A stretch of DNA of 64,000 nucleotides from Schmidtea polychroa (Eukaryota): contig CM097885.1 in assembly GCA_044892525.1 (NCBI GenBank), positions 139,934,001 to 139,998,000 of the forward strand, read 5' to 3'. Shown one piece after another: positions 3,448-37,086 of the stretch; positions within the stretch are counted from its first letter, which is position 1; each line of letters opens with the position of its first letter. Made by a program: the position numbers and the translations under genes. The notes beneath the pieces are model-generated. The model saw only the letters and a program-made list of their open reading frames with translations. It searched no databases and had not been told where the DNA came from.

Positions 3448-6400
3448 TATATATAATTTCAAGTGGTGAATTAGAGAGTAGGTGATTTGTAACACAGTGG
3501 CTTGAATTGAAAAGACAAAGTGCCATTTTATTACCAGCATTAGTTGTAAGTTAATTCAGTAACTTATCATGTCATCTATATATCAAATGCATGCATATGG
3601 GTTAATAATATATTCAATCTTTGGCCACTATGCCACACAATCGTAGTATATTCAGATAGCTTGAATGTTCAAAAAATCATTCATCTTAATCTATCCATAT
3701 TAAAACCCTAATTTTAAGTTAACCTTATTAAAAGCGACTTGATTTGCATTTATATTTGTGACTCCGTACAAATCGCTTTAGCAACACAGGGCTCAATCAG
3801 ATTGGCAATATATATTTATAATTAAATTTAATCGGTAGAATACAAGCTCAAAAATCTACAAATTGTCATCAGTTTAGCAATCAAGGTAATATCCTAAATC
3901 TTGAGGGTGTAGAGAAATCAAATAAATTTTTCGCTATTTTCAAAACAAAGGAATCATTTTTGATTTAATTTGAATGATACTTGATTAAAGATTATGTCAC
4001 GCTTCTATGTCCTTAAATCAAATTAAATAACTCCCAACCTGTCGTCTTTAAGTATGGAGTCAACTATTGTTTCATAATTCTAGCAGTGATTTAAAATTTT
4101 GGCTTGTCATTTATTTTAGCATATGAGAGACTGTTTCTAAAAGCAACTCGTTCTTGAAAACAGGTGACCTATACTTTAACCAGTATCAAATTAGTTATGT
4201 ACCACTCATCAGTATCCTCCATGAAAAGGGTTAAATGGTCAACATATCAAAAAGAGAATGCTTCAGCTTGTATTTGTTCTTTTAAATCTTTCAGCAATTT
4301 CGAAAGTCTTCAATTTCATGATTTAAAAAAAAATAAGGATTGAAAATATTATACGTTAGTAAAACTGTATAGGTTACCTCAGTTTTCGAATTTTATTCCA
4401 CAAATATAATAAGGAAAGTAATTTGATCACGTTGTTTCAGTGATTATATGCTTAGATAATTCTTTTGAAATTAAAAATAGCACACTAGGACAAAATTTAC
4501 TGACATATTGATATTTTACACTCGATGTTTATCCCTGGTTTAGTAATTATTTTTAAAATCTTAAAAAATTACAAAGTGATTAATGAAATTGCGAATATTT
4601 CCAAAACTTCAAGGCCATATTTAAGGTCAATGACAACTTTTTTAAGTTTAAGGTTAAATTGTAAACAAGGTAGGTGCAATACAAGTGCATGATTAACAAA
4701 GGCATGTGCAATACATGTACATGACTAACACGTCGAATGTGATATAAGATGTGTGTGTGTAAAATTTCCACTTAATTATTTCTCTTTATTAACAATTTTC
4801 TATACATGTACACACACACTTTCAACTCAAAAACAGATTTTTCATAAATTTTAAAGAAATTTATGTATTTTGATAAAATTTCATAATTTTGTCCTTAATT
4901 ATTGCCCCAAACAAACACACAATAATTCTCTACTCCATAATTTGAATTATGTGTGTAAAAATAAATATTTTAGGTTTTTCACTAATATTTGCAATAATAA
5001 TAATAATAATAGTGATAATAATAATAATCAATAATAAAGTTTAATGGTTGAGTGTGTGCAGTACCCTTACGACTGTTGGGCTAAAATGCGGAGTGGAGAA
5101 AACTGGAGCGAATAGAAAAATAAACCCCGAAAGATAGATGAAATAAAATAAAAATATAAAGTACCATAAAAATCTTACTAGTAAATAGGAAGGAACAATA
5201 AAAGAACAACAAAAGAATAAGAATAAGTAAACAAACTAAATAAAATCCAATAAACCCCTTAAGATTTAGAAATAAAACGGGTTAAGGTACACAGCGGATA
5301 AAATAGAAATAGAATAAGTAAAAAAGTGACAACAAATAAAAGAGAAATTTAAGAAATAAATAAAAAATAAAACTATCTTTAAGTCTAATTAAAACAAAAA
5401 ATTATATTACAATAAAGTAGCAATAAACCTACAGGAAAAATAGGAGGAAAATAATAAAAATAAGAAAATAAATAAAATAATAATAAGAAATAAGTTAAGT
5501 CATTAAAATCTAATATATTATAATAAAAAACATAAAAATGATAATAAATAGTAAAAATACAAGCAGGTAGCGTCCTGATTGGACGAAAAATACTATATAT
5601 GTAACGTGAAAAATTAGACGACAACCACTTTTAATTTTTCACGATTACAGGTAAAATTTTAGAAAAACTTAAAACCACTTTTAATTTTTCACGATTACAG
5701 AGCATAGACTTCAGATATTTCACCGAATTCAGGACTAGAATCGCAAACACTAATTCCAGAGATTTTCAGAACTTACCTTTAATTTAAATTCGATTTCGTT
5801 CCAGTTTTTGAAACTATCAGTAGGTTGATTGATTTATATGTATTAGTTAATTCATTAATGATGAAAAACAAAACTCATTTCGTAAAATAAATTTATTGAA
5901 ATACAAATGGCCTTTTCTTCATGGTGCCGGCGACTGTACCATCTGAGAGCTCCCAGTATGATGTGGACGAGTTGGAAATGTACCACGGTAGAGAACACGA
6001 CAGTGGGAAGGTTGACCTTCTTAAGAAATCCCGAAGATGCTGAAAATGAGAATGTGATATTTGCAGAGAAAGATATTTACCATAGGAGAGATCTACCAAG
6101 GGTATGATGAGGCTGCGGTTGTGTGGAATGAATAACATCATACTTGGAGTCCAAATGATAGGGTCGCCGGGTGAGCTTTATTGATTCATTTATTCTTTAT
6201 TGATTCATTTATTTTTATTGATTCATTTGCTGCTATTTGATTCCTTCATTCATTTTATTATTCATAAATTGTATATTAAATATTGATTTTGTGAAAAACG
6301 AGTCGAACGGTCCCTCATGACGATGCAAGAACGGCGGCAGAGATGATTGCCTTCTTGGGTGGGTCATGAGGGGTGAGGAGACTCCGCAGGTGGAATACTG

Positions 6401-7821
6401 TTGGCAGTGGAATTTCTCACCTCGAGCGCGATCTGATAGAGAATCTTTCGTTTTCTTTCATGAAGTCACGCCGAAGTTTCAGAGTAGATAATGTAAATTT
6501 CCAAAGTCGGAGACAATTTTTCGGATTGCGATCAGTAGTTCGTTGTTGTTAGGAAAACTTGCTTTTCCGTCGAATATTGATAGATGTCTGAGTAGGAATG
6601 GGCGATGAATTGTTAGAGTTTTCACTGGAAGATCTGCTAAGCACTTAAAAATTGAACCCCGAGAGGTACATTGCAGGGACATTAGCGAGTAAACCCATTC
6701 ATTGACTAATTTAGACTTTAGCTTGACATTGAATATCTGATAAAGTTTGGTTTGACGTTGACAGCGGCTCGTCTTAAATGGGAAAGTAAACAAATTTTTT
6801 GATAAGGAAATAAATCACTTGCCGTGAGTCCGAGTGAAGATATCAATAGCGATAGGAGAATCATTAGTTGCCCATGGCCAGATAAATTTCCGACGGGGAA
6901 AATCGGCTGATAATTTGATAAAGTCATCGAACGAGTTGATTGAGAAGGCGGCGGTCGATCGAATGTATTGAGTGGTCTTATCGTGAGTCGACCTAATATC
7001 GAAAATCCAGAATATAGAGTAATTTTTATCTACTGAATCCGCAAGTCACCCACACAATCGAATTTCTTGAGTTTTGGACACACCAACTGAGTACCCTTCA
7101 CAACTAGAGCATCTCTCTACAACTCTACCTCTATAAATCGCTCGCCCACATGTACACATGCATCACACTCAGATTAGGTCACAGTGCACATGTGGATATC
7201 ATCATTACCTAATCATAGGGAGAGAGTCGTACACTGATAACTGCTGGTAGACTACTGGATTGCGTCAGAGAACATGGCAATGCGACGAGAAATTTTTTTT
7301 TCTGTCAGTGTGCAAGTCGCTAGTTAAACGCACCAACATGCATCGTAACGAACCCATCGATAGTTGATGGTATAGATAGACAATCAAATGAACACATAAC
7401 TGCGCCCGATTTAAGCGTCACTATGACGATGTTTATGACGTTAAATTTGAAATAACAAATTTGTAATCCATGATAAAAATTTTAAGCGAGGGTATTATGA
7501 TTTTCTTACAAACCCGAGGGGTCTACATACAAGACGGGGTGTCCCGGTAATTGCCGATTTTCCGTTCATCATACAGCACGCGTAGAATCTAACGACGTAG
7601 CAGCAAAATGAGTAAAATATAATTGTTAAAATTTAACAACGATAATTAAGATAATAGCGTTCATAGTAACGAATTTACCGTTATGCCGTAGTTAAAAATA
7701 GTCAAACCCGTAAAGTAAACCTAAAAGCTAGCATAATGAATTGTTTTCATGAATCCCGTTTTCTTCTCATAAAGTAGTGATGATTACATGGGTCAGTTTA
7801 GATGTTTGAGATTGCATGAAG

Positions 7822-7963
7822 GTGAGTATTTGCCGACGGGGTAGATCGGTAGGCCACTCTTGGATAACTTGGTCGGGGAGGTCTTAAATTTCGTTTTCCG
7901 AACATATGAATAAGACCCCAGCGAATTTTTTTATTTAAAAATAAAAATTTCTTAACAATTTAG
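7822..7963 (+). other. Candidate 142-nt intron in the LTR preceding the LTR ORF
   Basis: Consensus donor AAG|GTGAGT at 7822. Branch-like TTAAC and acceptor TTTAG| lie directly before ATG 7964. The upstream ATG AAG (7816-7821) would join in frame. Confidence 0.55.
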
Positions 7964-8728
7964 ATGAATACTTCAACCAGTTCCGGGAAAACCCTCAGAC
8001 CTTGCTTTTCCTGTGCTGATAAAAATGCCGATATCGCACAGCTCCACTTGTACATCGGGGAATTGAAGAAGAGAATTGACCTCTATGAGGGAACGTGGTT
8101 CTCCCCACCACAAATGAAGGAGGAGAAGAGCAAGATTCTGCGTTTGGAGCACTGCCGTGACAGTCTCCTGGAAGAAAGCAGGTGCCAGAGGTTAACCATA
8201 AAGGCCCAATCAGAGGCACTGCACAAGGTGTATTCCGAATCAGAACTAGCGAAGCGAGTTCGCGAGTACCCGATACAAGATGGGACTAACGTGTTCCCAA
8301 TGCACCACAAATTAGCTGAAACCTCATCAATATCCAGTTGTAAAGGGCATGGCCCACAAATGCCGCCAATTCCCGCCCCAGTCCTTTCAGGCGATCGACC
8401 TATGGCTGGCGGTTCATCGGACCCTATCTTGGCTCCAGTACTCGTGCCACACCTCCTTCAGCCCCCAGCAGAAGCTACACTCCCCCATCGAAAGCGTAAG
8501 CGGCTGACGCGTTCTGAAAAAAATCAGAAGCGGAGGAATGCCATGGCCGCGCTCGAAGCATCGCTATCTGTAGCCACAGCAACTATCAAGGAAATTACAG
8601 TTACCCATTCCATTCCTACAAAGGAAGTATTCCGGGTAGTTCCGGCCGGTAGTATCAAATTCCTCGAAGACCGCCGGCTGCCCGTTGACATCGACGAGAT
8701 GCTCGCAGAGGGAGAAGCATTCTCGTAG
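7964..8728 (+). CDS. LTR-encoded 254-aa protein of unknown function (CxxC + coiled coil, Pro-rich linker, basic NLS-like HRKRKRLTRSEKNQKRR)
   Basis: Open, GC-richer ORF intact in both LTRs (one aa difference), with a diverged homologue at 1633-2205. Confidence 0.75.
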   Translation: MNTSTSSGKTLRPCFSCADKNADIAQLHLYIGELKKRIDLYEGTWFSPPQMKEEKSKILRLEHCRDSLLEESRCQRLTIKAQSEALHKVYSESELAKRVREYPIQDGTNVFPMHHKLAETSSISSCKGHGPQMPPIPAPVLSGDRPMAGGSSDPILAPVLVPHLLQPPAEATLPHRKRKRLTRSEKNQKRRNAMAALEASLSVATATIKEITVTHSIPTKEVFRVVPAGSIKFLEDRRLPVDIDEMLAEGEAFS

Positions 8729-9270
8729 CCAATTCTCTCTCGGGTCTCGATTCCCTGCTATTACGAACGAACTTGAAGAAGCGACGTTATCTCGTGACTA
8801 AACTTTAATGTTTTGCATTTACTTAAACAATGCTGAATGTAATTTGATGTTCCGTTCTAATATAACTGTTCGATTTTCTTTGATTGTGTTAATTGTATGT
8901 ATGATTTGCTACGGTTGAATTGCATGAGAGAAGGATCACGAATATATAGTAGAAACTTAAATGTCGTACCTTTTGGACCAGGGTCAGACTGAATGATGCG
9001 TATAGAATGGGTAAGACCTTCTAAGGCACCGTAGAACCCGAACCGAGAAAGGGTTAGGAGTAGTCCTAACGCAGGGGCTCACCTGCTAACTTTTTCCAAC
9101 CCGTGTGAGCAGTACCAACGTGGAACATCACCACGGGCTCATACGTGGGAATATGCGAACGATCATTTGGAGTGTGTGAGGGAATGGTCTGAGTAGAATA
9201 ATGATACCTGATGCGGATGATAATCATGCCCATACGTTTTCTTTTCCCCCACATACGCCAACATGATTTT

Positions 9271-9288
9271 TGGGGGCTCAGCCGGGAT
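9271..9288 (+). promoter_or_regulatory. E1 primer binding site, tRNA-Pro type
   Basis: TGGGGGCTCAGCCGGGAT, 7 nt after the LTR end. It resembles the complement of the tRNA-Pro 3' end (MuLV PBS TGGGGGCTCGTCCGGGAT). Confidence 0.85.
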
Positions 9289-9738
9289 GAATTCGATTTG
9301 TTGATTACCTATTATTGTGTTATGACGTGTTAGATTAACAATTTAATTAAGTATGATTAAAAAATGGAATCGGGACTGAAACGAATCGATATTGTAATAC
9401 AATAGAATGATGATACGAACTGAAAATAGAGCATGTATGAATAAAGATGAACCTAAATGAGTATGAATGTATATGATAAAGTATGATGAGAGAAGGAAAC
9501 GGGAATTAGTACTTTGTTTAATTTTAATTTATTAAATTAAAAAGGGGAGACAAAAGAAAATAATGACAATAAAATTAAATGATTAAAGTCAAAAATACGA
9601 CGGGGATTGTTAAAGACTAAATAAAATACGAAAGCTAGAAACAATAACAAATAAAAGAGAAACGAATATTAAATACAACGTAATAATATTATTGTTAATA
9701 CTAGTAAGAACAAATAATAACAACACATTCATTTAGAT

Positions 9739-10218
9739 ATGTCAGACGCTAGACAACATCTACAACAGCTAAGCCGGTTCGTCGAAATAGAAAATGATTC
9801 AATAAAAACATTAAGAGAAAAACTGAAACAAATAGAACTGCTAGAACAACAAAGCCACAACGCACCGCTGATATCCAAACAAAACTTTCTCACCGACAGA
9901 TTAGGATCAACAAATACCGATACCGACTTGTCGATTCATTACCAATGGTTTCAGCAACGTCTCGACGACCCAACGCTGAACATCGAATATGTGAGGATAC
10001 GCGAACGAGTCAAAACTCTGTCTCAGCGGATACGAACATCAATAGTAGAGAAAGCAGCGGCCTTGAGAACTTGTAACATTTGTAAGATGCGACCTGTCAA
10101 AATTCTGATTCTACCTTGTGGGCACCTTAGCCATTGTGACGAATGCGCCGCCAGTTTAATCCGGTGTTCTATGTGCACATGTGTAATAAAAGAGAAGCAC
10201 ACAATCTACTTCAGTTAG
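9739..10218 (+). CDS. 159-aa protein with C-terminal IAP/XIAP-type RING finger (putative E3 ligase); no BIR domain seen
   Basis: CNICKMRPVKILILPCGHLSHCDECAASLIRCSMCTCVIKEKHTIYFS* matches the spacing and the terminal hydrophobic tail of IAP RINGs. Confidence 0.85.
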   Translation: MSDARQHLQQLSRFVEIENDSIKTLREKLKQIELLEQQSHNAPLISKQNFLTDRLGSTNTDTDLSIHYQWFQQRLDDPTLNIEYVRIRERVKTLSQRIRTSIVEKAAALRTCNICKMRPVKILILPCGHLSHCDECAASLIRCSMCTCVIKEKHTIYFS

Positions 10219-10802: not shown

Positions 10803-11320
10803 GAGATATTAAGGCCGAGCTGTTGAAAAGTCCAGCCGGTCAGGAGAAATTGAAACTGAGCTGTGAAAAGTCCAGCCAGTCGGAGATATTAAGGCCGAGC
10901 TGTTGAAAAGTCCAGCCGGTCAGGAGAAATTGAAACTGAGCTGTGAAAAGTCCAGCCAGTCGGAGATATTAAGGCCGAGCTGTTGAAAAGTCCAGCCGGT
11001 CAGGAGAAATTGAAACTGAGCTGTGAAAAGTCCAGCCAGTCGGAGATATTAAGGCCGAGCTGTTGAAAAGTCCAGCCGGTCAGGAAAAATTAAAACTGAG
11101 CTGTGAAAAGTCCAGCCAGTCGGAGATATTAAGGCCGAGTTGTTGAATAGTCCAACCGGTCAGGAGAAGAAGATTGAGCTGTTGAAAAGTGCCAGCCAGT
11201 CGTAAGGCCGAGCTGTTGAAAAGTCCAGCCGGTCAAGAAAAATTAAAACTGAGCTGTGAAAAGTCCAGCCAGTTCGGAGATGAAGAAGATTGAGCTGTTG
11301 AAAAGTGCCAGCCAGTCGTA
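10803..11320 (+). repeat. 80-bp-period tandem array (dimer of ~40-bp subunits, ~13 copies of core GAGCTGT(T)GAAAAGT(G)CCAGCC(A/G)GTC) in the E1 leader
   Basis: GAGATATTAAGGCC recurs at 10803, 10883, 10963, 11043 and 11123, degenerating toward the 3' end. Confidence 0.95.
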
Positions 11321-11982: not shown

Positions 11983-14900
11983 TTGATTCGTGTAAGCAAA
12001 GGCAACACGATATCATATTTTCATTGTAGACATCCATCCAACCAAGTCAATTCAGAACCAGCTCAAGAGGAATCCAGAGAATATACAAACAACCCAGGAA
12101 AAGCAATTCAGAACCCGCACAAAGGAAGACAATATCAAAACCGAACTCGACCAATTCAGCAGACGCTAACCGTAGAAAATCCACGTGAAAAGACAGAAAA
12201 GAGTAAAAGGAAAATCACGGATAAACCCAACCTTAGATCTTCAAGTAAGCCAGGAGACGTATTATTTTCAGGAGACGAATTAGATCAACTCAAAAGAGGA
12301 CGATCATTTAGGCAGCAGAGAGGAATATCACAAGGAGCAAAAAGACCCCACAAAACACCGATATACGATCAAGAAAACCCCACAGCCGGACATACGCCCA
12401 GCCGATCTAGAAGTAGAGAAAGTCTATCCGATATAACAAACAACCTAACCGGGTCAACAGAAGAATTATCCGTCCATAGCTTAGCCACATCGCTGGAAAA
12501 TTTAAAAGAAATAATAGAGTTTCAAGAACCAATCAAGATGAATGTGGTAAAAACCGACGAGTATAAGGAAAAATTTAGAGGCGAACCATTCAACGGGAAT
12601 GCGAACAAGTTGGCAACGTTCATAACCAATTTTGAAGTCTATATTGATGTGTGTGGATGGACATCCGAAGCAATTAGTAAACGAATGCCTCTGTTTTTGT
12701 GCGATAGCGCACTCGAAGTATATCTGGAAGCAAAAGAAAGAAATACGAAATTAGACAATTGGGAAAACATCAAAACATTTTTGAGAAAAACATTCGGAGC
12801 CAGCAAACCGATAAACCAAGCGTTAGGTGAACTGGCAAGTAGAAAACAAAGAGCAAACGAGTCAATTACGTTATACGCAAGTGAATTGCGAAGATTGGCA
12901 AAGAAGGCCATGAACGGAAACTTGCCGGAGGAAAACTTAATTGGGTACTTCATAGAAGGACTACGCCGAGAAGAGGTAAGGGCCTCGGTGGGATGTCAAA
13001 TGTGTAAAACACTAGAGGAAGCTATAGATTGGGCCACAAGATGCGAACTACACCTCCCAGCACAAATGAACGTCATGCAAGAGGAGGGAAGAATCGCAAC
13101 AGCAACGGTGAAAACGGAAAATGGGGATAACAATAATCATGAACCCAAGATGAATCAGTTTATACCAGGAGCACATCAAATTTTCAAACCACCACAAGGA
13201 CGATCAAACGGGAATAACAGTGAACGCAACAACTCGAACAATGGGAACAACTTTAATAATCGACGAAATATGAACGATAACAAACAATGCCGAACATGCG
13301 GTAAACCAGGACATTGGGATAGAGATTGTTACCGAAACGCAAATTGCAATAGGTGTGGACGACGAGGACACACGGAAAATATATGCCAATCAAGAGGATG
13401 TTTTAACTGCGGGCAACTAGGTCATATCTCAAGAGACTGTCGAGAAAGGAGCCAACAACAACGACCACCACAGCGAAATAATAACTATGCACCAAATCCG
13501 CAACGACAAAGTAATCCTAGTGAGGGAAAGCAAATGAATGTGATGCAAGAAATTTCACAAATGAAGCAGATGATGCAACAAATGATGAGACCGAGACAAG
13601 AGCAAGTACCACAACCAACCCAGAATATACGCATGATGAGAAGCACCGAGAATCTTAACAATTATGAAGTGCAACAACATGCACAAGAATGGCAAAGACT
13701 ACAAGCTGAAGAAGAAAGGATAAAAAGAGAGCGAATTCAGCAGCGACAAGAACAACCACTACGAATAAATATGATGAGGATGGTAAAGGAGATAAAGGAG
13801 CAATATTGCTACAATTACGGTAAAAATCCAAGAGTTGTACCTATGAGCGAACCAGAGAAACTGAAGGAAACAATTACAGCAGCACAAAAGGAAAATTCAA
13901 CAACACCGCTAAAAGGAAATCAGAGAATTCAGAAAATATTTTGGAAAAAGATAAAAGATAAAATCGAAAGAGAAAATGAGCAAACAAAAACAGAAGCAGA
14001 AGCAGAAAATAACGAAAATGAAAAACAGATTAATCATCTAAAGCATAATATGATACGAGAATTAGACTCAGAGGAGCTAACGATACTCGAGAACAACAAG
14101 TTAAAGAAAGTACCAAGAATGAGAAATTTACGAATTAATATGATGAGGACAACAAAGAAGGTGTTGTCAACAGATGACGATGAGGATTATGTGAGTAGCC
14201 TTGGTGGAGAAATGTTACAGTTAAATGAAAATATCGACCAACTGAGAGAAAAGATCGGAGCAGATGAGGATGAAAGAGAAAGCGACGTGACAAGCGAAAG
14301 CGAAGACGAGAATATCGAAATGAAATTGAGAAAAGAAAGAGAAGAAGCGATAAAACAAGTAAAGGAAATACTTCCAGTGGTGGTAAGAAACCAGGAATTC
14401 ATTGACATCATACCATACCGACGCTTCATACAAAAGATAATGAAACTAGAAAGAAACGAAAAAGACCTAATACCAAACGAGGAAAAAGTGATAATAAAGA
14501 AGTATATGGAAAAAATGAAACAAGCGGAGACAACACGCTATGTAATAAAAATCGGAACGAGTAAAGGACTCGAGAGAATATGGATAAAAAATGCAGTCAC
14601 AGACGAGCTTTTTGATTGGATAAGAGAACATTTGGGCAGCTCGAGAAAGAAAGAGTATTTATATCAACATCAAGGAGAACAAATTAAGCCAGACATGCAC
14701 CTAATAGATGCATTGATCTGGCCAGGAGAAACTCAAATATTGAAATTGTATAAAGAGAAACAACCAGCAAATATTCACGAATGGGCTAAAGACGCCAAGG
14801 CCGAGTACGATTTTAACATCAAGCTGAAGCTGGAACAAATAAAACAATGCACCTTGCGACGAAATCTAGATAAATTAATCAAGCAAATCCAAGAACAAGT

Positions 14901-17900
14901 TGAGGATAATTGGGATTTGCTCATAACAAGACGAACTGCAGACATGCATGAGCTACTGAGCCGATTACGAGATACAGAATTGCTCAGGATGAGCGATTGG
15001 AGAACCATAAATTTGATCCACAAATATGGAAGGTTGAAAGAAACGCAACCGCAGAAATTAGAAATAACCATATGGTTACCAAACGAGGAGAAACGACGAA
15101 TAAAGATGAGTAATCAGAGTACGGTGGATGACTTAGTAACCAAGATAAACCAAGAGATAACGGAAAAAGTACAAAGCGAGAGTAGCGACGGGATGATAGA
15201 TGACGTAGTCATGATGTACGATAAAATAATATTACGGGCCGAGGACGACACCTCGCTAAGCGAAATGGGAATGTGGGATAATCATCAAATCATCAGAATA
15301 TTGCCCATGGACGAATTCCGAACAAGAGATATAACATACCAGAAAGAAATACGAGACAGGATGAAAACGCTATATCAAAAATCAGTAGAGATAATTGAAA
15401 TTCATCAACAGTGGCTAAAAGAAAAAGGGCTTCAAGGAAAAATAAAGAAACTAAGTGTTAGATCTTGCAGACGAACCCCATGGGAAAGGACGTGGAATGC
15501 GGAAAACAAAGAATGGGAAATCAGGAAAGGGATTTTCGTGGAAACAGACATTGGCGAGATAGAAAGCGAATCAGAAGAAGAGGAAGATGAACCTCCAAAA
15601 TACGAAGAGGACGAAATAGAATCGACATCGGACGACGAAAGCGAAACGGATGTTACATCAGAAAGTGAAACGGAAACCAGACATATTCATGCGATGAGAA
15701 AGAAAGAACGCGAATATGCCGATATGGACAGCGAAGAAGCGATGGAAGCTCGAGAACGAGAAGAGAAGGAAAGATATAAACAATTAGGTGATATCTTAGC
15801 AACGGGAACAAAAAATCAAAAACGTCAAGTAATAGCATTGGCTAACATCATCCTAAAGACATCAGAGAATATCCACAATCTAAGAGAAATGGCGAAAGCG
15901 ATTGAGGAATACAGACAATATAACGAATGGTACCCAGAACAGCTAGAACAAATTATTAGGAAATGGAGAAACCAAGAATGGGCACAAGATACCCAGGAAA
16001 GGTATCGTATCCGAGTCAAGTATCCCGACAAAAGCATTGAGGATACAGAAGTACATCCAACAACAAAGATCAGAGAGTTAAAAAAGAAATTAGCATACGA
16101 AACTCCATTTCACCTACAACTATTCGGAAAATCTCTGGATGATAATGCAGATGTCGGAATAACACCCATGAGATTGGGGGAGATCAATGTATTGACAATG
16201 GCAGAAACATTGGGAAAACCGATTAAAAGGAAGAACAAATCCAGTAAACCTACGAAAGGTAGCTTGAGTACACCAAGCCCTAACAAAGTGGCAAGTAAAA
16301 CGAATGAAACCGAGGAAATCGAGGAAATTATATTGGAAGACAGCGATGAAGGAGCTGGAGAAAGATCACCAATTCTGGTAAGATGGCCGACAGGAGCCGA
16401 AATATGGACAACAAGCCAACCGTCAACTAGCTATCAGCAGCCAAATAAGCTGAGTATCGAGGAAATTATCGATAATACAACAGAAACCGAAACCGACGAA
16501 CAATTCCAACGACAGAAAGGACTAACGAAAGCAACACCAGAAGGTCAAACGGACAAAATAATAGACGAATGGAACGAATGGCTGAGAAACAACGATAGCT
16601 CATTGCCAAGAACGGATAACGAGAGGAACCCGAATTATGAAAATACAAGGGAAGCCGGAACAATGATGGAAAAACGGGCAAAAGGGAGACCCAAGAAGCA
16701 AGGAGAAAAACCGGAATTTAAAACTAGAGAACAACTGAAACAAGAACAAGGACAAGTCAGATTAGAGAAACTAGATAAAATAGTGTGGGATCTAAAAGAG
16801 GCCCAGCCAACTATCGAAAGAGGCGAAAAATGGATACGAGAGCTAGTAAAAGATATGCTAATAATAACGAACCCACAATTGCGACGGTTATGGCAACGAA
16901 AAGTAGCAAGCGTAGACGCCAGACAACTATGGAATACAATATCCGGAATAATTCCGAAATTAATCAAAGAGAAGACAAAAACCACTAAAACCGATTGGGA
17001 AGAGACAAGAAGAGTAATTGAACAATTAACTTTAAACGCAAACGACGACGAACATCATTTAGTAGTGTTAACGTATCTAATGTACAATTTGATGGGATTA
17101 GCAGCAAGGAAAATACCTAACAAACAATTCGCAAATCATGTAGAAATGACCGTCACAATCATTGAAAATACAATCGAACCACATATCATCCGCGCCGGTG
17201 GGTGGAAAAGACTCATACAAGCGCCACGAAAAAACGAGCAAGAGAGATCAATGCAAATTCGGTTGAAGAAGTTACTAAATGAGCTAGAATGGGAATTGCC
17301 ATTGAAAGACCCAGCCAGCAGAAAAGCGTCGATTAATTCACTAATGATGACCATGATGATATGGATGCTCTGCACCAGTGGAGCCGCGGGATTTACTATT
17401 TACGACTGTGACAATTCGATAATAGGAGAAAGATACTCCCTGAGAGATATAGAGGAATGTAGACAGGCGTCTCCGAATAAATTAGATATAGTAAAAAAGA
17501 AAGTCTCCTATCACGTATACCAAGAATCAGATTTCATTAGAACGCAAGCTAGAGAATGCGTAGTATCGAAGAAAGTGTTGGCATATTACTGTGGACAATA
17601 CTCATATTCAACCCTCATATTACCTGGATTAGATAAAGAAATAGTACCTATACAACGGGAAGACTGTAAAGAGCTTTTTAGAACCGGAGCGATGAGAATC
17701 AGGGATGGAGTAACAATACACGGACAAAGCGGAATGATCAAGACAGAAAGTATCTATGTCGCCGGACGAGTAAAATCAACTGATGGATCATGTAACGGAG
17801 GCACATATACGATCAGAGGAGAGGTGATATCAGGAGTAGTAGTAATTGAGTCCTACACAGTGGAGTTGAAGGAATACGAAGCACAATTCGACGCAAACAA

Positions 17901-20900: not shown

Positions 20901-23900
20901 GAAAATGCCGTTCGGACTGACCAATGCCCCAGCATCATTCCAGAGATGTATGAATTTTGTCACACACGGGATCAAGCAGTGTATGGTATATATTGATGAT
21001 TTATTAATATATTCAGCAACATTCGAACAACATTTGGAAGATATCAGAAACGTGTTCGTTCGATTACGACAATGGAAACTGAAACTTAAACCATCCAAAT
21101 GTGATTGGGCAAAAGAAAAGGTTACGTTCTTAGGACACATAGTGTCAGCAAAAGGCAAAGAACCAGATCCAAGAAACATAGAAAAAATAAAAACATGTCC
21201 AGCACCAAAAACTGTCACCCAAGTTCAAGAATTTCTCGGATTATGCGGATATTATCGAAAATTCATCAAAAACTATGCAGGTATTGCGAAACCAATACAG
21301 GAATTAGTGAAAAAGGATATTTCATTTATTTGGGGTGCAGAACAACAAAAAGCGTTTGAAACATTGCGCGATAAATTAATCGAAGCCCCAATACTAGTAC
21401 ATCCTGATTTCAAGAAACCATTCCTATTAGCAACAGATGCAAGTGGATATGCAGCCGGAGCAATATTGGGACAACTCGACGAAGAAGGAAAAGAAAGAGT
21501 GATTGGATACTACAGTAGAACGTTTAAAAAACACGAGAAAAACTATTCCGTAACCGAGAGAGAAGCGTTAGCAATCATACAAGCAATTAAACACTTTCGA
21601 TATTTGTTATGGGGACACGAAATATGTATCACCACGGATCACCAACCATTAGTATGGCTTGGTCAACACAAAGAAGCTTCAAGTAGATTGATGCGATGGG
21701 CAATGCAGTTACAAGAATATTCACCGTTCATAAAATTCAAAGCGGGAAGAGCGAATGCCAATGCGGATTGTATGTCCAGATTTATCTTTCCAGATTTAGT
21801 AGATCACGAAATGCAACGAATATGTCTGATGGTAGCAGAAGATTTAGATTTTTGCCAATTACGGAAAGACCAACAAGAGGATACAGAGTTGAAGCAAATC
21901 ATTGAATATGTGAAAACAGGGAAAGCAGAGGTATATGAGAAAGATCAAAAATTGAAGGAGCATATGGATAAACATCGACATCGATATATTATCGAGAAAG
22001 ATTGGTTATTGATAATGGATGGCGAGAAAAGACTGATGTGCATTCCCGAGAATAGACGTAAAGATCTACTAACACAATACCATGACGGAAGACTCGGAGG
22101 ACATATGTCATCTAAAAAGACGTTGGCACGAATGAAACAAAAATATTTTTGGCCTACATTGACCGAGGATGTAGCGGAATGGGTGAAAAATTGCATAACT
22201 TGCGCAACCAGAAAAAACACGGGAACAAAATGGAAGGCACCATTAAAGCCTATGCCAGTGCCAGCAGAACCAATGACAATGATATCAATGGACGTAGTCG
22301 GTCCACTACCAGAATCAGATAGAGGAAATATATATATATTGGTAATCACAGATTATTTGACAAAATTCCCCGAAGCATTCGCAACGGCAGATCAGAAAGC
22401 AAGAACAATCGCAAAAATATTAGTAGAGGAAATATGTTGTCGATATGGAACGCCGAAACAAATACTGACGGATCAAGGAACGAATTTCATGAGCGAAATA
22501 ATGAGCGAAGTCACCAACTACTTCAAGATCGCAAAATTAAGAACATCACCGTACCATCCACAAACTAATGGTATGACAGAAAGATTCAATGGAACACTGA
22601 TTCAAATGTTATCAAATTATGTCGATCGTCATCAACGAGACTGGGATGAATATATAAAATTATGTCTAATGGCTTACAGAATGTCGATTCACGCGTCCAC
22701 AAAGATGAGTCCGTTCAAGTTGATGTACGGCAGAGAATGCAATATGCCAATGGATTTAGAATATCAGCCACCGATATCACAATACATGGAAATAGACGAT
22801 TATGTAACCAAGTTCAAGGAAAGAATGCAGGAAATCTGGGAAACCGCAGGATTGAATATAAAATTTTATCAAGAAAGTTACAAAGAGTTACATGATAGAA
22901 AGAAAAACGTCAAACAGCATACGTTTCAAACAGGCGAATGGGTGATGATTGAAACACCAGAATTAATTCCAGGAACCACCAAAAAATTACAACGAAACGG
23001 TAAAGGGCCGTATGAGATTCTATTCGTCGGAGAAACTAATGTAAGAGTACGATTAGTGAACAACCCTTTTACAAGACCAATATACGTAAATGTTGCACGA
23101 TGTAAGCCAATTCCGAAAACCGCCACCAGTCAGCCAGAAGGACGTACACTAACGACAAGATCACAAACGTATAGAATAAACATGTTACAGCAAATAAACG
23201 AACCAACAGGTAATCGATTAGGGTTACAACCATCAGAAGCCGAGAAAATCATAAAGGAAGTAAAAGTTAAAATGCCCGGATGGGCAGAAGACAGATTAGA
23301 TTTTGAGATATTGGGAGGTCTGCTAACAATGATCGAAAATTATGCAAACCGAGAAAGAACACACCCATTGCTCAGGGTAGTTAAAAGTCAATGGCCTATA
23401 TTATTCACGATCACAGACCATTACGGAGACACACCCCTGCACAAGCTTTTAAAGGTGGGTAGTAACGAACAGATATTAGAAACAATTGAAGCATTTCGCG
23501 ATTGTAACATTTCGACAGATCAAGAAAACAACCAAGGTTACACTCCACTAATGATAGCAGCCAATCGGGATAAAGCTAAAGATATTATCATCGCATTACT
23601 TGAAACTGGGTCAAAGATAACCACACAAGATCACAACCAGGAAAATGCATTACATCATGCAATCGAAGGGAAAAGTACGGAAGCCTTCATAATCTTAGTA
23701 GATCTATTATCGTACGAGGATAATAGAGAGATAGGAAACATGTATGACGGGCTATTAACTGCAATCAAAGAGAAATTAACAACAATTGCTGGAATACTAA
23801 TTGCATGGAGGAACCCGATAAAAAACGATTATATGGTAGATATAAACGAAACATTTACCAAAGGAGAAAACACCTTGATGAGAGAAGCGATGAGAGGACA

Positions 23901-26586: not shown

Positions 26587-26946
26587 ATGGAGCGAATAGG
26601 CGAGGAAGTAAACCACAGTACAACAACCGAGGAGATGTGGAAACAACAATGTGCAATGTTAACTCAAGTGATTTCGAATTTACAGGAACAAGGACTCGCT
26701 GTACAAAGAAGCTTAGTCGAAAGTTTAAATAAAGGCTTCAATTATGTAAGAATAATCGAAGACCAACGAATAAAAATAGAACAAATGCAGCGAGAGATAG
26801 ACCGAATATCACGATACAGCCAGGTGCAAGAAGAGGAGTTAATAAGAATCGCGGAAGAGATGGAGCGAGAGGAGATAGAAGACTGGTCAGAATGGTTAAC
26901 CAACAGGGAAGAGGGCGGACAAGAGGCCGACTCTTCCAGCCAATAA
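26587..26946 (+). CDS. Accessory coiled-coil protein (~119 aa from the first ATG)
   Basis: Purine-rich ORF with heptad-like pattern between AT-rich spacers. The ORF track starts it at a TTG (26563). Confidence 0.6.
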   Translation: MERIGEEVNHSTTTEEMWKQQCAMLTQVISNLQEQGLAVQRSLVESLNKGFNYVRIIEDQRIKIEQMQREIDRISRYSQVQEEELIRIAEEMEREEIEDWSEWLTNREEGGQEADSSSQ

Positions 26947-28424: not shown

Positions 28425-28641
28425 AGAGACGAATAATTTTGTATATACTAATTGTAAATATCGGCGTATATATCCAGTAAAATATTATATAGTAGTGTAG
28501 AAAATTCCCCCAAATCTACCAAAGGTAAACTTAAGCGAAAACTCCTAAAACAACTCCTATAACGAATTATAAAAATAAATAAATAATAAACCAGATATAA
28601 GCGTACAACGTTAAGTTAATGATATCGTTATTTAGACAAAG

Positions 28642-29679
28642 ATGACACAAGAAGGAACTGAAGCCCCAAACCATGAAACCAAAGTCAATAAAATCCATAA
28701 GGGAAAATGGGTCAAAGTAATGTTACAATTGACGAACCAGACCCACAACCATCTCGAAGAGGCCAGGGAATACGAGAATAACAAATATCAGTGGTTAATA
28801 AACAATTTAAGAGCCGAAGCAGAAGCATGCAAAAGAGCCTCTAAGTGGGCATCATTGGAAAACACTCGCCAAGAAGCGCACAGCCACTATTTAAAACAGT
28901 TAGTGCAGGAAGCACGGAAACGATTGACGGACGAAAACACAAAACGAGAAGCAGAAAAACAAAAGGAAGGAAGGAAAATGAATCACCTATTGGCAGAAGC
29001 CCGAAACTGGAAGCGGCAGAACAAAGAGATGAAAAAAGAAATGAAAGAATTGCCTATGAGATTAGAATACGAAAGCGAACAAGGCAAATGGGAGGAAAAT
29101 CTGGTCATAAGAGAAGAACTGAAACGGCTCAGAAAGATTGCGGCCCGAAGCCAAACATGGCAGACCAAAGCCATGGAATTTGAAAGACATCTAGCCATGA
29201 AAATCTCCATAAGGGAGCACGAGAATGCCACAATGGAAGAACTGATACTTCAACAGTCAGGACGACTCGTGGAACTGGTGAATAAGGTCGCAGAACTAGA
29301 ACGAGATGTCAACGGATACCAAGGAGCTCTGGAGCAGAGAAATATGGTACTGGCGGGGAAAAACAAAAAGTTAGAAAACGAAAGGAAAATGTACAACGAA
29401 AATCTTAAAAATCTGGAGATAGAGATCAAGAAATGGGAAAACGGCGAAAAAGCGGAAGAGCTAGAAAAACAGATAGAGGTAAGAGACGATGAAACCAGGT
29501 ATCTAACATACCTGTTGGACGAGGAACTTAACGTGTCAAGAGCACTAAGAGACGAAGTGCAAGAACTTAGAGCGCAGATTCCCCGATACTACATCCCATT
29601 TGATCCCATCGCACTCCAATTACAAACGTCAGTAGAAAGCGATGAGGGATATGTAGGCCAGGAAGAGACCTTTGTATAA
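28642..29679 (+). CDS. Accessory long coiled-coil protein, 345 aa
   Basis: Intact E/K/R/L-rich heptad ORF flanked by AT-rich spacers. Confidence 0.8.
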   Translation: MTQEGTEAPNHETKVNKIHKGKWVKVMLQLTNQTHNHLEEAREYENNKYQWLINNLRAEAEACKRASKWASLENTRQEAHSHYLKQLVQEARKRLTDENTKREAEKQKEGRKMNHLLAEARNWKRQNKEMKKEMKELPMRLEYESEQGKWEENLVIREELKRLRKIAARSQTWQTKAMEFERHLAMKISIREHENATMEELILQQSGRLVELVNKVAELERDVNGYQGALEQRNMVLAGKNKKLENERKMYNENLKNLEIEIKKWENGEKAEELEKQIEVRDDETRYLTYLLDEELNVSRALRDEVQELRAQIPRYYIPFDPIALQLQTSVESDEGYVGQEETFV

Positions 29680-29852
29680 AGATAAAAGGAAAGATAAAAA
29701 ATATAAAAATCGGGACCTGTATCCCAACCAAAAAATTAATGGTACAGTAAAAGTATGAAAGGGACTGTAACCCTGACTATAAAATAACATATAAATGTAT
29801 AAGTATAAGCCGCACTGTAGCGCAATTATTAATTATGTATATATTATAGAAA

Positions 29853-30554
29853 ATGAACACTGAAAACGGACAACCCAGCATAACATCTATAATCGAGTTA
29901 GAAGAGGGAGAAATTGAAGTTGATGAAGTGGAGAGGAAGAAAACTATCAAGGAAGAATTACAAGAAGAGAGACAGGAAAACGAAAGATTAGTTGAAAGAT
30001 GGAGAGATAATCGAAAAATGATTAAAGTATTGAAAAGAGAATATATCTTGTTAGAAGGAATAAAGAAAGAAGTAGAGGAAGAAAACGAATGGCTTCACGA
30101 GCAAAGAAAGCGAGGGAGAAATTGGGAAAAGATCGCGGAAGAATTATGGCAGGAGAGGGCCAGTCGAAAGGCCGACGAAGTGATTAGTGACTATTGGAAA
30201 ACCGAGGCACGGAAACACCAAGAAAGCCTGAAAGAGTTACAACTCCAACTACACCAAAAACAGAAAGAATGTGAGATAATGAGACGAATGAACAACAAAT
30301 ACCAGGAAATAGACAACGAAGAGGACGGGGAAAGGGAAAATGATTTTCTACAGATAATGAACCATAGAAACCTCGAAAGAGCAACACAAGAAATAAAAGC
30401 ACTAAAAGGAAAAATAATAACCCTAAGGCAACAGTTAGACGAAAGAGACAAACAATTAAAAGTACTACCCGAATTGAGAAAACGAGTAATAAAAGCGGAA
30501 ACGAGAGTGATGAGAACATCCGAGAAAACCCGTAAAAAGAAAACCCGGCAATAA
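29853..30554 (+). CDS. Accessory coiled-coil protein, 233 aa
   Basis: Intact E/K/R-rich heptad ORF with an acceptor-like TTATAG just before the ATG. Confidence 0.75.
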   Translation: MNTENGQPSITSIIELEEGEIEVDEVERKKTIKEELQEERQENERLVERWRDNRKMIKVLKREYILLEGIKKEVEEENEWLHEQRKRGRNWEKIAEELWQERASRKADEVISDYWKTEARKHQESLKELQLQLHQKQKECEIMRRMNNKYQEIDNEEDGERENDFLQIMNHRNLERATQEIKALKGKIITLRQQLDERDKQLKVLPELRKRVIKAETRVMRTSEKTRKKKTRQ

Positions 30555-30609
30555 TTAAAGATGAATGATCAATGTAAATAATTGTAAATAAAAATTTTCG
30601 TATAGTAGT

Positions 30610-31236
30610 ATGTGGTTCGGAGTAACCCTGGTGACAATAATGATGATAGCGATAAACGGGATACCCATGTGGCAGCCAATCCCAACATTCTGGGAGAATC
30701 CCGAGAAACAGCAAAACCCTTTAACCAAACTAAAAAGCGAGAGAAAGCTCTCCAACAACATCCCGAAACAATGCTGGAACAAAGTCGTCTGGGAAAAACT
30801 TCAAATGCAACTCCACCTACAAACCCAAAAAATCGAACAGCTCGAAATTCTCTTACAAGAACAAACCACCCAACAATCCTTGAAGGAAATCATCATGAAG
30901 AAGGAAGTAAAAGAAAGCCAAGTCTTACTCTATACTACCATCAGTGAAACCCTTATCATCTGCGCACTAGTCATCTGGAAAGCGTATGATATTCATCGAA
31001 CATGGAGAAGAAACCAGTCACTATCCGAGAAACAAGAAAGAAAGAACCCACGATCGAAAAATAAACATAAACGAGCAGTACATTTTCAACAACCAAACCC
31101 ACCCGACCAAATGCAACAAAATCTATCTCCTGACCAAATGCCTGTTACAATCCAGCTCCCCACGATAACAACTTCAACCAGCCATCCGACCCAGAATTCA
31201 ACCAACCAAGACATTCCGAACCTTGAGATCATGTGA
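30610..31236 (+). CDS. Accessory type I membrane protein, 208 aa (SP, coiled-coil ectodomain, TM, P/Q/T-rich tail)
   Basis: SP MWFGVTLVTIMMIAING, TM VLLYTTISETLIICALVIW, basic stop-transfer residues follow. Confidence 0.75.
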   Translation: MWFGVTLVTIMMIAINGIPMWQPIPTFWENPEKQQNPLTKLKSERKLSNNIPKQCWNKVVWEKLQMQLHLQTQKIEQLEILLQEQTTQQSLKEIIMKKEVKESQVLLYTTISETLIICALVIWKAYDIHRTWRRNQSLSEKQERKNPRSKNKHKRAVHFQQPNPPDQMQQNLSPDQMPVTIQLPTITTSTSHPTQNSTNQDIPNLEIM

Positions 31237-31433
31237 CATCGACCATTCATAAACTTATTGTGTATAAATCCGGTCACCTAAAGTGGCCACTGCTTGCTTA
31301 TATTTGTCCTTTTATCTGTTTGATTAAAGTATTATTTAGTTATTTTAATTTTATGTTTGTGTGAATGTTGACCGTGAAATTAGTTGTTATGCCGAAAAAA
31401 GGTATGAGTTAAACGTATGATATTATGTGAATT

Positions 31434-31467
31434 GCGGGGCGCAATTTTAACGGGCCCCGGAGTGATT
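31434..31467 (+). promoter_or_regulatory. E1 PPT-equivalent region (atypical, GC hairpin)
   Basis: GCGGGGCGCAATTTTAACGGGCCCCGGAGTGATT directly before the 3' LTR. It resembles the E2 pre-LTR GCGGACATTATCTTAACGGCCCAGGGAGGAA. Confidence 0.5.
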
Positions 31468-34400
31468 TGTTGGGCTAAAATGCGGAGTGGAGAAAACTGG
31501 AGCGAATAGAAAAATAAACCCCGAAAGATAGATGAAATAAAATAAAAATATAAAGTACCATAAAAATCTTACTAGTAAATAGGAAGGAACAATAAAAGAA
31601 CAACAAAAGAATAAGAATAAGTAAACAAACTAAATAAAATCCAATAAACCCCTTAAGATTTAGAAATAAAACGGGTTAAGGTACACAGCGGATAAAATAG
31701 AAATAGAATAAGTAAAAAAGTGACAACAAATAAAAGAGAAATTTAAGAAATAAATAAAAAATAAAACTATCTTTAAGTCTAATTAAAACAAAAAATTATA
31801 TTACAATAAAGTAGCAATAAACCTACAGGAAAAATAGGAGGAAAATAATAAAAATAAGAAAATAAATAAAATAATAATAAGAAATAAGTTAAGTCATTAA
31901 AATCTAATATATTATAATAAAAAACATAAAAATGATAATAAATAGTAAAAATACAAGCAGGTAGCGTCCTGATTGGACGAAAAATACTATATATGTAACG
32001 TGAAAAATTAGACGACAACCACTTTTAATTTTTCACGATTACAGGTAAAATTTTAGAAAAACTTAAAACCACTTTTAATTTTTCACGATTACAGAGCATA
32101 GACTTCAGATATTTCACCGAATTCAGGACTAGAATCGCAAACACTAATTCCAGAGATTTTCAGAACTTACCTTTAATTTAAATTCGATTTCGTTCCAGTT
32201 TTTGAAACTATCAGTAGGTTGATTGATTTATATGTATTAGTTAATTCATTAATGATGAAAAACAAAACTCATTTCGTAAAATAAATTTATTGAAATACAA
32301 ATGGCCTTTTCTTCATGGTGCCGGCGACTGTACCATCTGAGAGCTCCCAGTATGATGTGGACGAGTTGGAAATGTACCACGGTAGAGAACACGACAGTGG
32401 GAAGGTTGACCTTCTTAAGAAATCCCGAAGATGCTGAAAATGAGAATGTGATATTTGCAGAGAAAGATATTTACCATAGGAGAGATCTACCAAGGGTATG
32501 ATGAGGCTGCGGTTGTGTGGAATGAATAACATCATACTTGGAGTCCAAATGATAGGGTCGCCGGGTGAGCTTTATTGATTCATTTATTCTTTATTGATTC
32601 ATTTATTTTTATTGATTCATTTGCTGCTATTTGATTCCTTCATTCATTTTATTATTCATAAATTGTATATTAAATATTGATTTTGTGAAAAACGAGTCGA
32701 ACGGTCCCTCATGACGATGCAAGAACGGCGGCAGAGATGATTGCCTTCTTGGGTGGGTCATGAGGGGTGAGGAGACTCCGCAGGTGGAATACTGTTGGCA
32801 GTGGAATTTCTCACCTCGAGCGCGATCTGATAGAGAATCTTTCGTTTTCTTTCATGAAGTCACGCCGAAGTTTCAGAGTAGATAATGTAAATTTCCAAAG
32901 TCGGAGACAATTTTTCGGATTGCGATCAGTAGTTCGTTGTTGTTAGGAAAACTTGCTTTTCCGTCGAATATTGATAGATGTCTGAGTAGGAATGGGCGAT
33001 GAATTGTTAGAGTTTTCACTGGAAGATCTGCTAAGCACTTAAAAATTGAACCCCGAGAGGTACATTGCAGGGACATTAGCGAGTAAACCCATTCATTGAC
33101 TAATTTAGACTTTAGCTTGACATTGAATATCTGATAAAGTTTGGTTTGACGTTGACAGCGGCTCGTCTAAAATGGGAAAGTAAACAAATTTTTTGATAAG
33201 GAAATAAATCACTTGCCGTGAGTCCGAGTGAAGATATCAATAGCGATAGGAGAATCATTAGTTGCCCATGGCCAGATAAATTTCCGACGGGGAAAATCGG
33301 CTGATAATTTGATAAAGTCATCGAACGAGTTGATTGAGAAGGCGGCGGTCGATCGAATGTATTGAGTGGTCTTATCGTGAGTCGACCTAATATCGAAAAT
33401 CCAGAATATAGAGTAATTTTTATCTACTGAATCCGCAAGTCACCCACACAATCGAATTTCTTGAGTTTTGGACACACCAACTGAGTACCCTTCACAACTA
33501 GAGCATCTCTCTACAACTCTACCTCTATAAATCGCTCGCCCACATGTACACATGCATCACACTCAGATTAGGTCACAGTGCACATGTGGATATCATCATT
33601 ACCTAATCATAGGGAGAGAGTCGTACACTGATAACTGCTGGTAGACTACTGGATTGCGTCAGAGAACATGGCAATGCGACGAGAAATTTTTTTTTCTGTC
33701 AGTGTGCAAGTCGCTAGTTAAACGCACCAACATGCATCGTAACGAACCCATCGATAGTTGATGGTATAGATAGACAATCAAATGAACACATAACTGCGCC
33801 CGATTTAAGCGTCACTATGACGATGTTTATGACGTTAAATTTGAAATAACAAATTTGTAATCCATGATAAAAATTTTAAGCGAGGGTATTATGATTTTCT
33901 TACAAACCCGAGGGGTCTACATACAAGACGGGGTGTCCCGGTAATTGCCGATTTTCCGTTCATCATACAGCACGCGTAGAATCTAACGACGTAGCAGCAA
34001 AATGAGTAAAATATAATTGTTAAAATGTAACAACGATAATTAAGATAATAGCGTTCATAGTAACGAATTTACCGTTATGCCGTAGTTAAAAATAGTCAAA
34101 CCCGTAAAGTAAACCTAAAAGCTAGCATAATGAATTGTTTTCATGAATCCCGTTTTCTTCTCATAAAGTAGTGATGATTACATGGGTCAGTTTAGATGTT
34201 TGAGATTGCATGAAGGTGAGTATTTGCCGACGGGGTAGATCGGTAGGCCACTCTTGGATAACTTGGTCGGGGAGGTCTTAAATTTCGTTTTCCGAACATA
34301 TGAATAAGACCCCAGCGAATTTTTTTATTTAAAAATAAAAATTTCTTAACAATTTAGATGAATACTTCAACCAGTTCCGGGAAAACCCTCAGACCTTGCT

Positions 34401-35657
34401 TTTCCTGTGCTGATAAAAATGCCGATATCGCACAGCTCCACTTGTACATCGGGGAATTGAAGAAGAGAATTGACCTCTATGAGGGAACGTGGTTCTCCCC
34501 ACCACAAATGAAGGAGGAGAAGAGCAAGATTCTGCGTTTGGAGCACTGCCGTGACAGTCTCCTGGAAGAAAGCAGGTGCCAGAGGTTAACCATAAAGGCC
34601 CAATCAGAGGCACTGCACAAGGTGTATTCCGAATCAGAACTAGCGAAGCGAGTTCGCGAGTACCCGATACAAGATGGGACTAACGTGTTCCCAATGCACC
34701 ACAAATTAGCTGAAACCTCATCAATATCCAGTTGTAAAGGGCATGGCCCACAAATGCCGCCAATTCCCGCCCCAGTCCTTTCAGGCGATCGACCTATGGC
34801 TGGCGGTTCATCGGACCCTATCTTGGCTCCAGTACTCGTGCCACACCTCCTTCAGCCCCCAGCAGAAGCTACACTCCCCCATCGAAAGCGTAAGCGGCTG
34901 ACGCGTTCTGAAAAAAATCAGAAGCGGAGGAATGCCATGGCCGCGCTCGAAGCATCGCTATCTGTAGCCAAAGCAACTATCAAGGAAATTACAGTTACCC
35001 ATTCCATTCCTACAAAGGAAGTATTCCGGGTAGTTCCGGCCGGTAGTATCAAATTCCTCGAAGACCGCCGGCTGCCCGTTGACATCGACGAGATGCTCGC
35101 AGAGGGAGAAGCATTCTCGTAGCCAATTCTCTCTCGGGTCTCGATTCCCTGCTATTACGAACGAACTTGAAGAAGCGACGTTATCTCGTGACTAAACTTT
35201 AATGTTTTGCATTTACTTAAACAATGCTGAATGTAATTTGATGTTCCGTTCTAATATAACTGTTCGATTTTCTTTGATTGTGTTAATTGTATGTATGATT
35301 TGCTACGGTTGAATTGCATGAGAGAAGGATCACGAATATATAGTAGAAACTTAAATGTCGTACCTTTTGGACCAGGGTCAGACTGAATGATGCGTATAGA
35401 ATGGGTAAGACCTTCTAAGGCACCGTAGAACCCGAACCGAGAAAGGGTTAGGAGTAGTCCTAACGCAGGGGCTCACCTGCTAACTTTTTCCAACCCGTGT
35501 GAGCAGTACCAACGTGGAACATCACCACGGGCTCATACGTGGGAATATGCGAACGATCATTTGGAGTGTGTGAGGGAATGGTCTGAGTAGAATAATGATA
35601 CCTGATGCGGATGATAATCATGCCCATACGTTTTCTTTTCCCCCACATACGCCAACA
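31468..35657 (+). repeat. E1 3' LTR (4,190 bp)
   Basis: Copy of 5074-9263, followed by TSD CGAC. Confidence 0.97.
34358..35122 (+). CDS. 3'-LTR copy of the 254-aa LTR ORF
   Basis: Identical to 7964-8728 except T->K (SVATAT vs SVAKAT). Confidence 0.75.
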   Translation: MNTSTSSGKTLRPCFSCADKNADIAQLHLYIGELKKRIDLYEGTWFSPPQMKEEKSKILRLEHCRDSLLEESRCQRLTIKAQSEALHKVYSESELAKRVREYPIQDGTNVFPMHHKLAETSSISSCKGHGPQMPPIPAPVLSGDRPMAGGSSDPILAPVLVPHLLQPPAEATLPHRKRKRLTRSEKNQKRRNAMAALEASLSVAKATIKEITVTHSIPTKEVFRVVPAGSIKFLEDRRLPVDIDEMLAEGEAFS

Positions 35658-37084: not shown

Positions 37085-37086
37085 TT

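Follow-up and report, generated by a model that had tools for sequence, protein, structure and literature searches.

The giant Burro retroelements of planarians have been described in terms of their size, their MATH/TRAF, BIR, ankyrin, BCL2-like and Ubi/SUMO-like domains and their in-frame envelope (env), and were presented as possible proviruses whose meddling with apoptosis and ubiquitination would be worth testing (PMC6431247, 2019, section 7). A later work (PMC13524379; Chary and Hayashi, 2026) lists six S. mediterranea errantiviruses of the gB-type gag-env-pol kind, Smed_errantivirus_1-6; the terms Burro, TRAF and Bcl do not occur in its main text. In this work we analyzed a stretch of 64,000 nucleotides of the Schmidtea polychroa genome (assembly GCA_044892525.1, contig CM097885.1, positions 139,934,001 to 139,998,000, forward strand; hereafter the window), in which an intact retroelement flanked by long terminal repeats (LTRs) spans positions 5074-35657 (30,584 bp by self-comparison and LTR mapping). 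The element is a recent insertion of an intact Ty3/Gypsy LTR retroelement, and its cargo, which comprises a TRAF, an IAP-type RING, a Bcl-2 fold, ubiquitin-like (Ubl) units and ankyrins, is likely host-derived. An initial annotation of the same DNA had offered a death-signalling reading of this cargo as possibly new, but both the kind of element and the apoptosis/ubiquitin reading of its cargo are already published as Burro. Our literature search yielded no paper that tests Burro cargo for selection or assays its function. What is added here is evidence of strong purifying selection on the cargo, of its modular make-up across sister families (an inserted MATH domain and a BIR gene, each present or absent), of a TRAF that groups with intronless TRAFs of the host, and of a Bcl-2 domain that keeps the fold but not the BH1 motif.

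Comparison with described elements

Like Burro1 (PMC6431247, section 7), the window element exceeds 30 kb, with multi-kb LTRs, one open reading frame (ORF) of nearly 5000 amino acids (aa) and accessory ORFs, and its ORF1 combines gag with three CCHC knuckles, Ubl and BCL2-like domains, an in-frame env, the protease, reverse transcriptase (RT), RNase H and integrase in this order, and ankyrins. It differs from Burro1 in its length (30.6 kb against 35.0 kb) and in having neither a MATH domain inside ORF1 nor a BIR gene. A second giant family of the same genome, known here from one locus (35.0 kb with LTRs of 4.77 kb, same primer site), does carry a MATH domain inside ORF1, together with a separate TRAF and a BIR-RING gene, and fits the published description of Burro1/GYPSM1 apart from the length of its ORF (4791 codons against the published 4873 aa). 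Its MATH domain, absent from the window element, is an insertion in its acidic spacer. Identity between the window element and this 35-kb family is 91% in RT, 88% in RNase H, 78% in integrase, 57% in env and 34% in the Bcl-2 domain, whereas RT, RNase H and integrase are only 50-62% identical (RT 50-53%) to those of smaller env-bearing families. Because these three enzymes are far closer to the Burro1-like family, the window element can be placed as a Burro-clade sister of Burro1, as its size and domain set also indicate, and the initial annotation had held membership in the Burro elements possible; it is probably one of Burro-2, -3 and -4, the published description setting it apart from Burro1 itself.

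The Burro-like element of Dugesia (Girardia) tigrina (PMC6431247) likewise has an ORF1 without MATH and a TRAF domain on a separate accessory ORF, but there the TRAF ORF lies upstream and Gag has two knuckles, while in the window element it lies downstream and the knuckles are three. Gene order and envelope class are shared with Smed_errantivirus_1-6 (PMC13524379); by eye the window envelope is nearest to no. 5 and is identical to none of the six listed envelope stretches. The domain classes of the cargo also occur in large DNA viruses (viral Bcl-2, IAP and ankyrin proteins), and the planarian nidovirus PSCNV likewise has an ankyrin domain (PMC6211748), both likenesses being analogies only. 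Unlike the large DNA viruses, the window element is an LTR retroelement with a TRAF that groups with genes of its own host.

Copy number and selection

All 150 scored RT matches were 97-100% identical, a number which is a lower bound on copies, and at least 66 of the 149 other copies sit in ORFs 4700 aa or more in length. The 3' cargo was followed in 37 copies (every fourth of the 149 RT matches) and the 5' part in 20 stretches (every second of the 37 copies, plus one), a protein being counted as intact when a single ORF covered at least 90% of that in the window. By this measure TRAF is intact in 30/37 copies, the 119-aa ORF in 35/37, the two coiled-coil ORFs in 31/37 and 32/37 and the last 618 aa of the polyprotein in 33/37, while the membrane ORF reaches at least 195 aa in 28/37; at the 5' side 19 of the 20 stretches have an intact RING ORF and nine an intact 2007-aa N-terminal part of the polyprotein.

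Ratios of nonsynonymous to synonymous divergence (dN/dS, pairwise Nei-Gojobori) were 0.07-0.12 for TRAF (five comparisons), 0.00-0.02 for the Bcl-2 domain, 0.01-0.04 for env, 0.03-0.04 for the ankyrins and 0.01 for RT and integrase. The Ubl units gave 0.02-0.05 against a distant subfamily, with wide intervals against close copies, and the RING ORF gave 0.09-0.21, the 345-aa coiled-coil ORF about 0.04-0.05, the ORF in the LTR 0.13 and the membrane ORF 0.28-0.61. Residues 2690-2800, the stretch compared with regard to the dUTPase-like region reported for Burro, gave 0.05-0.06. Compared with a copy 72% identical to it, TRAF has no gap column in 1389, whereas the adjoining spacer has 38 in 224. 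These comparisons show that the cargo is kept by strong purifying selection and is not decaying; the initial annotation had named a lack of significant profile or structure matches for the cargo domains, or neutral evolution with disruption in most copies, as the outcome that would refute its reading, and neither was found.

Domains of the cargo

Profile searches gave significant matches for TRAF, RING and the ankyrins, and the Bcl-2 and Ubl domains were recognized by profile and fold, so that the domain assignments of the initial annotation hold. As a single sequence the Bcl-2 region is weak (Pfam E 0.097), with no match in the PDB and nothing useful from Atlas. An alignment of eight element-borne rows matched an alignment of seven Bcl-2 genes of the same genome at 96% (hhalign, alignment against alignment), and the element profile matches Bcl-xL at E 1.7e-5. 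In structural searches with a model of predicted local distance difference test (pLDDT) score 77, the best 33 VIA rows were all Bcl-2 folds, viral Bcl-2 structures among them (top Z 13.3, root mean square deviation 2.6, 137 aligned), and Foldseek returned Bcl-2-family rows only, none with E < 0.001. Alignment and model thus support a region that would adopt the Bcl-2 helical fold. The domain ends about 30 residues before the signal-like stretch of env, both here and in the smaller env-bearing families.

For the Ubl region the model was poor (pLDDT 40). Even so, each of the 44 Foldseek rows listed was a ubiquitin fold (best E 0.004, for the three units taken jointly), and a profile built from the three units and their sister-family counterparts matches ubiquitin-like structures at E 0.002. 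A terminal GG was not seen in the units, and we regard Ubl domains here as predicted with moderate support. The two ankyrin blocks are 22% identical to one another and resemble generic ankyrin proteins; no IkB appears in the best 60 of 138 PDB matches, and the best 150 matches in the representative library are long multi-repeat proteins of 24-36% identity, a search swamped by generic repeats.

The best PDB matches of the RING ORF are cIAP1, cIAP2 and XIAP (E 1e-9 to 2e-8). The TRAF ORF is complete, with RING, zinc fingers, coiled coil and MATH, and its closest PDB relatives are TRAF3 and TRAF2 (E about 1e-27). The membrane ORF, the fastest-evolving cargo, falls into three sequence classes of about 25-36% identity which are found with closely related RT and which all keep a Glu-Thr within the transmembrane helix. 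A model resembling LMP1, in which this 208-aa protein would recruit TRAF, was rejected, since PxQxS occurs in 10 of 29 tails, all of them of the window's class, at a chance rate near 0.2. Contig alignments from four runs had no GT-AG joint in the 15 listed of 36, and such alignments cannot show transcription.

The envelope claimed by the initial annotation was recovered as a chuvirus/gB-like glycoprotein between gag and pol, as in errantiviruses of the gB-type GAG-ENV-POL kind; it consists of a signal-like hydrophobic stretch (by eye), a fusion-glycoprotein ectodomain with 14 Cys, and a transmembrane helix at 19072-19128. The PDB sequence search returned no match to it, and the protein collection holds one relative at 39%.

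Origin of the TRAF gene

The MATH-region tree comprised 42 rows, six from elements, 15 of the host from the best Pfam matches and 21 outgroup proteins, and has long branches and a midpoint root. The six element rows group with five intronless TRAF genes and one other TRAF of the genome (99/95); as for the separate TRAF genes, those of one giant family are sister to those of the other (97/81). This pattern fits a single capture of TRAF from the host before the families split, the midpoint-rooted tree leaving the direction of transfer undecided. By eye, about 120 of the best 150 MATH matches sit in long polyprotein-type frames. An expansion of TRAF genes in planarians has been reported (PMC6109357), and element copies may have swollen planarian gene counts for TRAF, IAP and Bcl-2. 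On contig C2, at about 114-121 Mb, TRAF-like host genes that contain introns and have RING and MATH exons form a cluster.

Possible function of the cargo

We lean, with moderate confidence, towards a selected cargo that would help the producing cell to survive by damping stress and death signals that depend on ubiquitin, and not by a specific block of NF-kB. In such a scheme the polyprotein would be threaded into the endoplasmic reticulum (ER) at the env signal peptide. After signal-peptidase cleavage the Bcl-2 domain would stay tethered to the ER membrane, with the ectodomain on the lumenal and Pol on the cytosolic side. Gag, Pol and the ankyrins would be freed by the protease, expression of the 3' ORFs would depend on subgenomic RNAs, and enveloped particles might take the element out of somatic cells and into stem or germ cells. 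In planarians, knockdown of a host TRAF raises cell death (PMC7586133, in which "transpos" is absent as a term), the TAK1/MKK/p38 response to infection involves traf2-1 and xiap (PMC4993586), and loss of SMEDWI-2 leads to BURRO1 expression in differentiated intestinal cells (PMC8532177).

Several observations weigh against this pro-survival reading. The NWGR of BH1, the hallmark of canonical pro-survival Bcl-2 proteins, is replaced in 8/8 aligned element rows (host rows keep an NWGR-like BH1), and the Trp of BH2 is replaced by His in the family of the window element, which makes BH3 binding doubtful. No BIR domain was found by Pfam in the eight element ORFs scanned, so that the RING stands alone and the protein is not an IAP in the usual sense. 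The envelope ectodomain has only one N-glycosylation sequon, and BURRO1 RNA interference failed to improve the smedwi-2 phenotype (PMC8532177). As to the selection data, the copy sample was drawn from the best RT matches and is biased toward young copies, several dS values are saturated and some not computable, and dS changes abruptly within individual copies, a sign that subfamilies have recombined with one another.

The cargo might instead work for the element itself, in assembly and traffic, with the Bcl-2 fold as a scaffold beside the env signal peptide and the Ubl, RING and TRAF parts handling ubiquitin-dependent budding or shielding element proteins from degradation, with little effect on death. 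This would agree with the place of the Bcl-2 fold directly before env in the smaller relatives too, with the loss of BH1 in 8/8 aligned rows, and with a Bcl-2 dN/dS (0.01-0.02) as slow as that of RT, more typical of a structural core than of a host-contact surface; the fold matches also include A46, A52, B14 and N1L, which we take to be Bcl-2 folds with tasks other than apoptosis. Signalling parts such as an IAP-type RING and a complete TRAF speak against this reading, as does the BIR-RING gene that the sister family also keeps, and canonical Bcl-2 proteins outscore the poxviral non-apoptotic folds (Z 13.3 against 5.9-8.6); we consider an assembly role the main rival, less likely than the pro-survival one. 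Clearly less likely is the wiring proposed in the initial annotation, where a TRAF2-cIAP ligase pair, IkB-like ankyrins and Bcl-2 would jointly shut off tumour necrosis factor receptor (TNFR)/NF-kB signalling. In the PDB the TRAF does have TRAF3/TRAF2 as its nearest relatives and the RING has cIAP, but cIAPs bind TRAF2 through a BIR domain, which the element lacks. Proteins joining a Rel homology domain (RHD) to ankyrins are annotated in databases for S. mediterranea, and an IkB mimic has been proposed in the planarian nidovirus (PMC6211748). Against this, the element's ankyrins have only generic affinities, and the single Rel-family gene found in the genome has no ankyrin similarity within 50 kb. 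The motif carried by that gene is one that we take to be NFAT5-like. With no BIR, no IkB among the best 60 PDB matches, the only Rel gene found being of this type and BH1 lost, the NF-kB version is weak and the specific wiring is not supported. Neutral baggage is very improbable: in copies this young, intact frames are poor evidence by themselves, but dN/dS lies far below 1 across subfamilies at dS from 0.3 to more than 2, and together with the gap-free TRAF beside its gapped spacer this refutes neutrality.

A wider form of the pro-survival reading, that the Burro clade consists of infectious endogenous viruses of planarian stem and germ cells which run an anti-death and anti-immune programme of captured host genes, with a membrane-anchored Bcl-2, an active TRAF, an IAP-type ligase and a fast-evolving surface protein marking host conflict, is less likely than not. 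On infectivity, the intact env with its dN/dS of 0.01-0.04 bears indirectly at most. If this wider reading were true, hundreds of intact copies would add to the host TRAF/IAP dosage when silencing by Piwi-interacting RNAs lapses. A working cargo would mean that a retroelement manipulates host survival in the way of large DNA viruses, and does so in a model of stem cells and regeneration.

Structure of the element

The coordinates of all features are collected in Table 1. The near-identical LTRs, target-site duplication and primer-binding site claimed by the initial annotation are all present: self-comparison of the window found the 4.19-kb direct repeat at 5074 and 31468, the two LTRs differ at 3 of 4190 positions and have 6-bp inverted ends, and the primer-binding site begins seven bases past the 5' LTR and matches a tRNA-Pro(TGG) gene of the same genome. 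On contig C1 near 130.9 Mb there are tandem tRNA-Pro(TGG) genes with a 475-bp period, and the 3' pattern has 2164 matches genome-wide. Inspection of the sequence ahead of the 3' LTR revealed no classical polypurine tract. G+C is about 39% within the element and about 30% in the flanks. The RING ORF lies upstream of the long frame, which is open from 11983 to 26418 (4811 codons) and encodes gag, Ubl, Bcl-2, env, pol and ankyrin in this order, and five ORFs follow downstream; the catalytic motifs and the order of the pol domains are those of Ty3/Gypsy. The 254-aa ORF of the LTR matched no Pfam family and is 44-53% identical to a stretch of the LTR of the Burro1-like family. For the C-terminal module of the polyprotein no family and no usable Atlas match were found.

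Table 1. Features of the element, in window coordinates.
Feature	Position	Strand	Basis or remark
Left target-site duplication, CGAC	5070-5073	.	flank comparison
5' LTR, 4190 bp, TGTTGG...CCAACA	5074-9263	+	self-comparison
254-aa ORF within 5' LTR	7964-8728	+	second copy 34358-35122 in 3' LTR
Primer-binding site	9271-9288	+	18/18 complement, tRNA-Pro(TGG) gene 3' end plus CCA
159-aa ORF ending in IAP-type RING	9739-10218	+	Pfam 3.2e-8
40/80-bp tandem repeat in leader	10803-11317	.	
Polyprotein ORF	12538-26418	+	4626 aa from first likely Met
Gag core and three CCHC knuckles	12688-13443	+	Pfam Retrotrans_gag 1.9e-10, zf-CCHC
Three predicted ubiquitin-like units	14530-14769, 15052-15315, 15997-16224	+	profile and fold
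Predicted Bcl-2-fold domain, BH1 degenerate, BH2 partly kept	16807-17238	+	alignment and fold
Envelope	17326-19128	+	Pfam Monjiviricetes_fusion (PF24664) 6.8e-72
Protease (DTGA), RT (YIDD), RNase H, integrase	19729-22842	+	Pfam RVP, RVT_1, RNase H, integrase
Two ankyrin-repeat blocks	23380-24852	+	Pfam Ank_2 1.4e-15
C-terminal module	25417-26418	+	hydrophobic stretch (by eye), Cys-containing region, transmembrane helix 26221-26277
119-aa helical ORF	26587-26946	+	homologue in Burro1-like family
Intronless full-length TRAF, 462 aa	27036-28424	+	Pfam and PDB
345-aa coiled-coil-like ORF	28642-29679	+	
233-aa coiled-coil-like ORF	29853-30554	+	
208-aa predicted type I membrane protein	30610-31236	+	fast evolving
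3' LTR, 4190 bp	31468-35657	+	self-comparison
Right target-site duplication, CGAC	35658-35661	.	flank comparison

Other elements and genes

Another young gag-Bcl2-env-pol element, at window positions 36037-49546, begins 379 bases further downstream; it has identical 1050-bp LTRs, a TTAA target duplication and a 777-aa 3' ORF. Near 38981-39009 its polyprotein passes from one frame to another, while in other copies a single frame holds about 3053 aa, and by eye the envelope of this family resembles that of Smed_errantivirus_3 (PMC13524379). A relative at locus L089:1798-6816 has a 1673-aa ORF which joins gag and Bcl-2 to the 3' region without env or pol, and is possibly a non-autonomous derivative. 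Elsewhere in the genome, multi-copy Bcl-2 matches (loci L097, L098 and L099) share their regions with a packaging-type ATPase (Pox_A32 match) and an integrase, an arrangement suggestive of Polinton/Maverick-like elements with Bcl-2 genes as well. The remainder of the window holds an exon with an MH2 (Smad) domain at 59660-60361 on the minus strand (E 2.6e-36) and a weak hAT transposase fragment at 55449-56165 on the plus strand (E 0.04).

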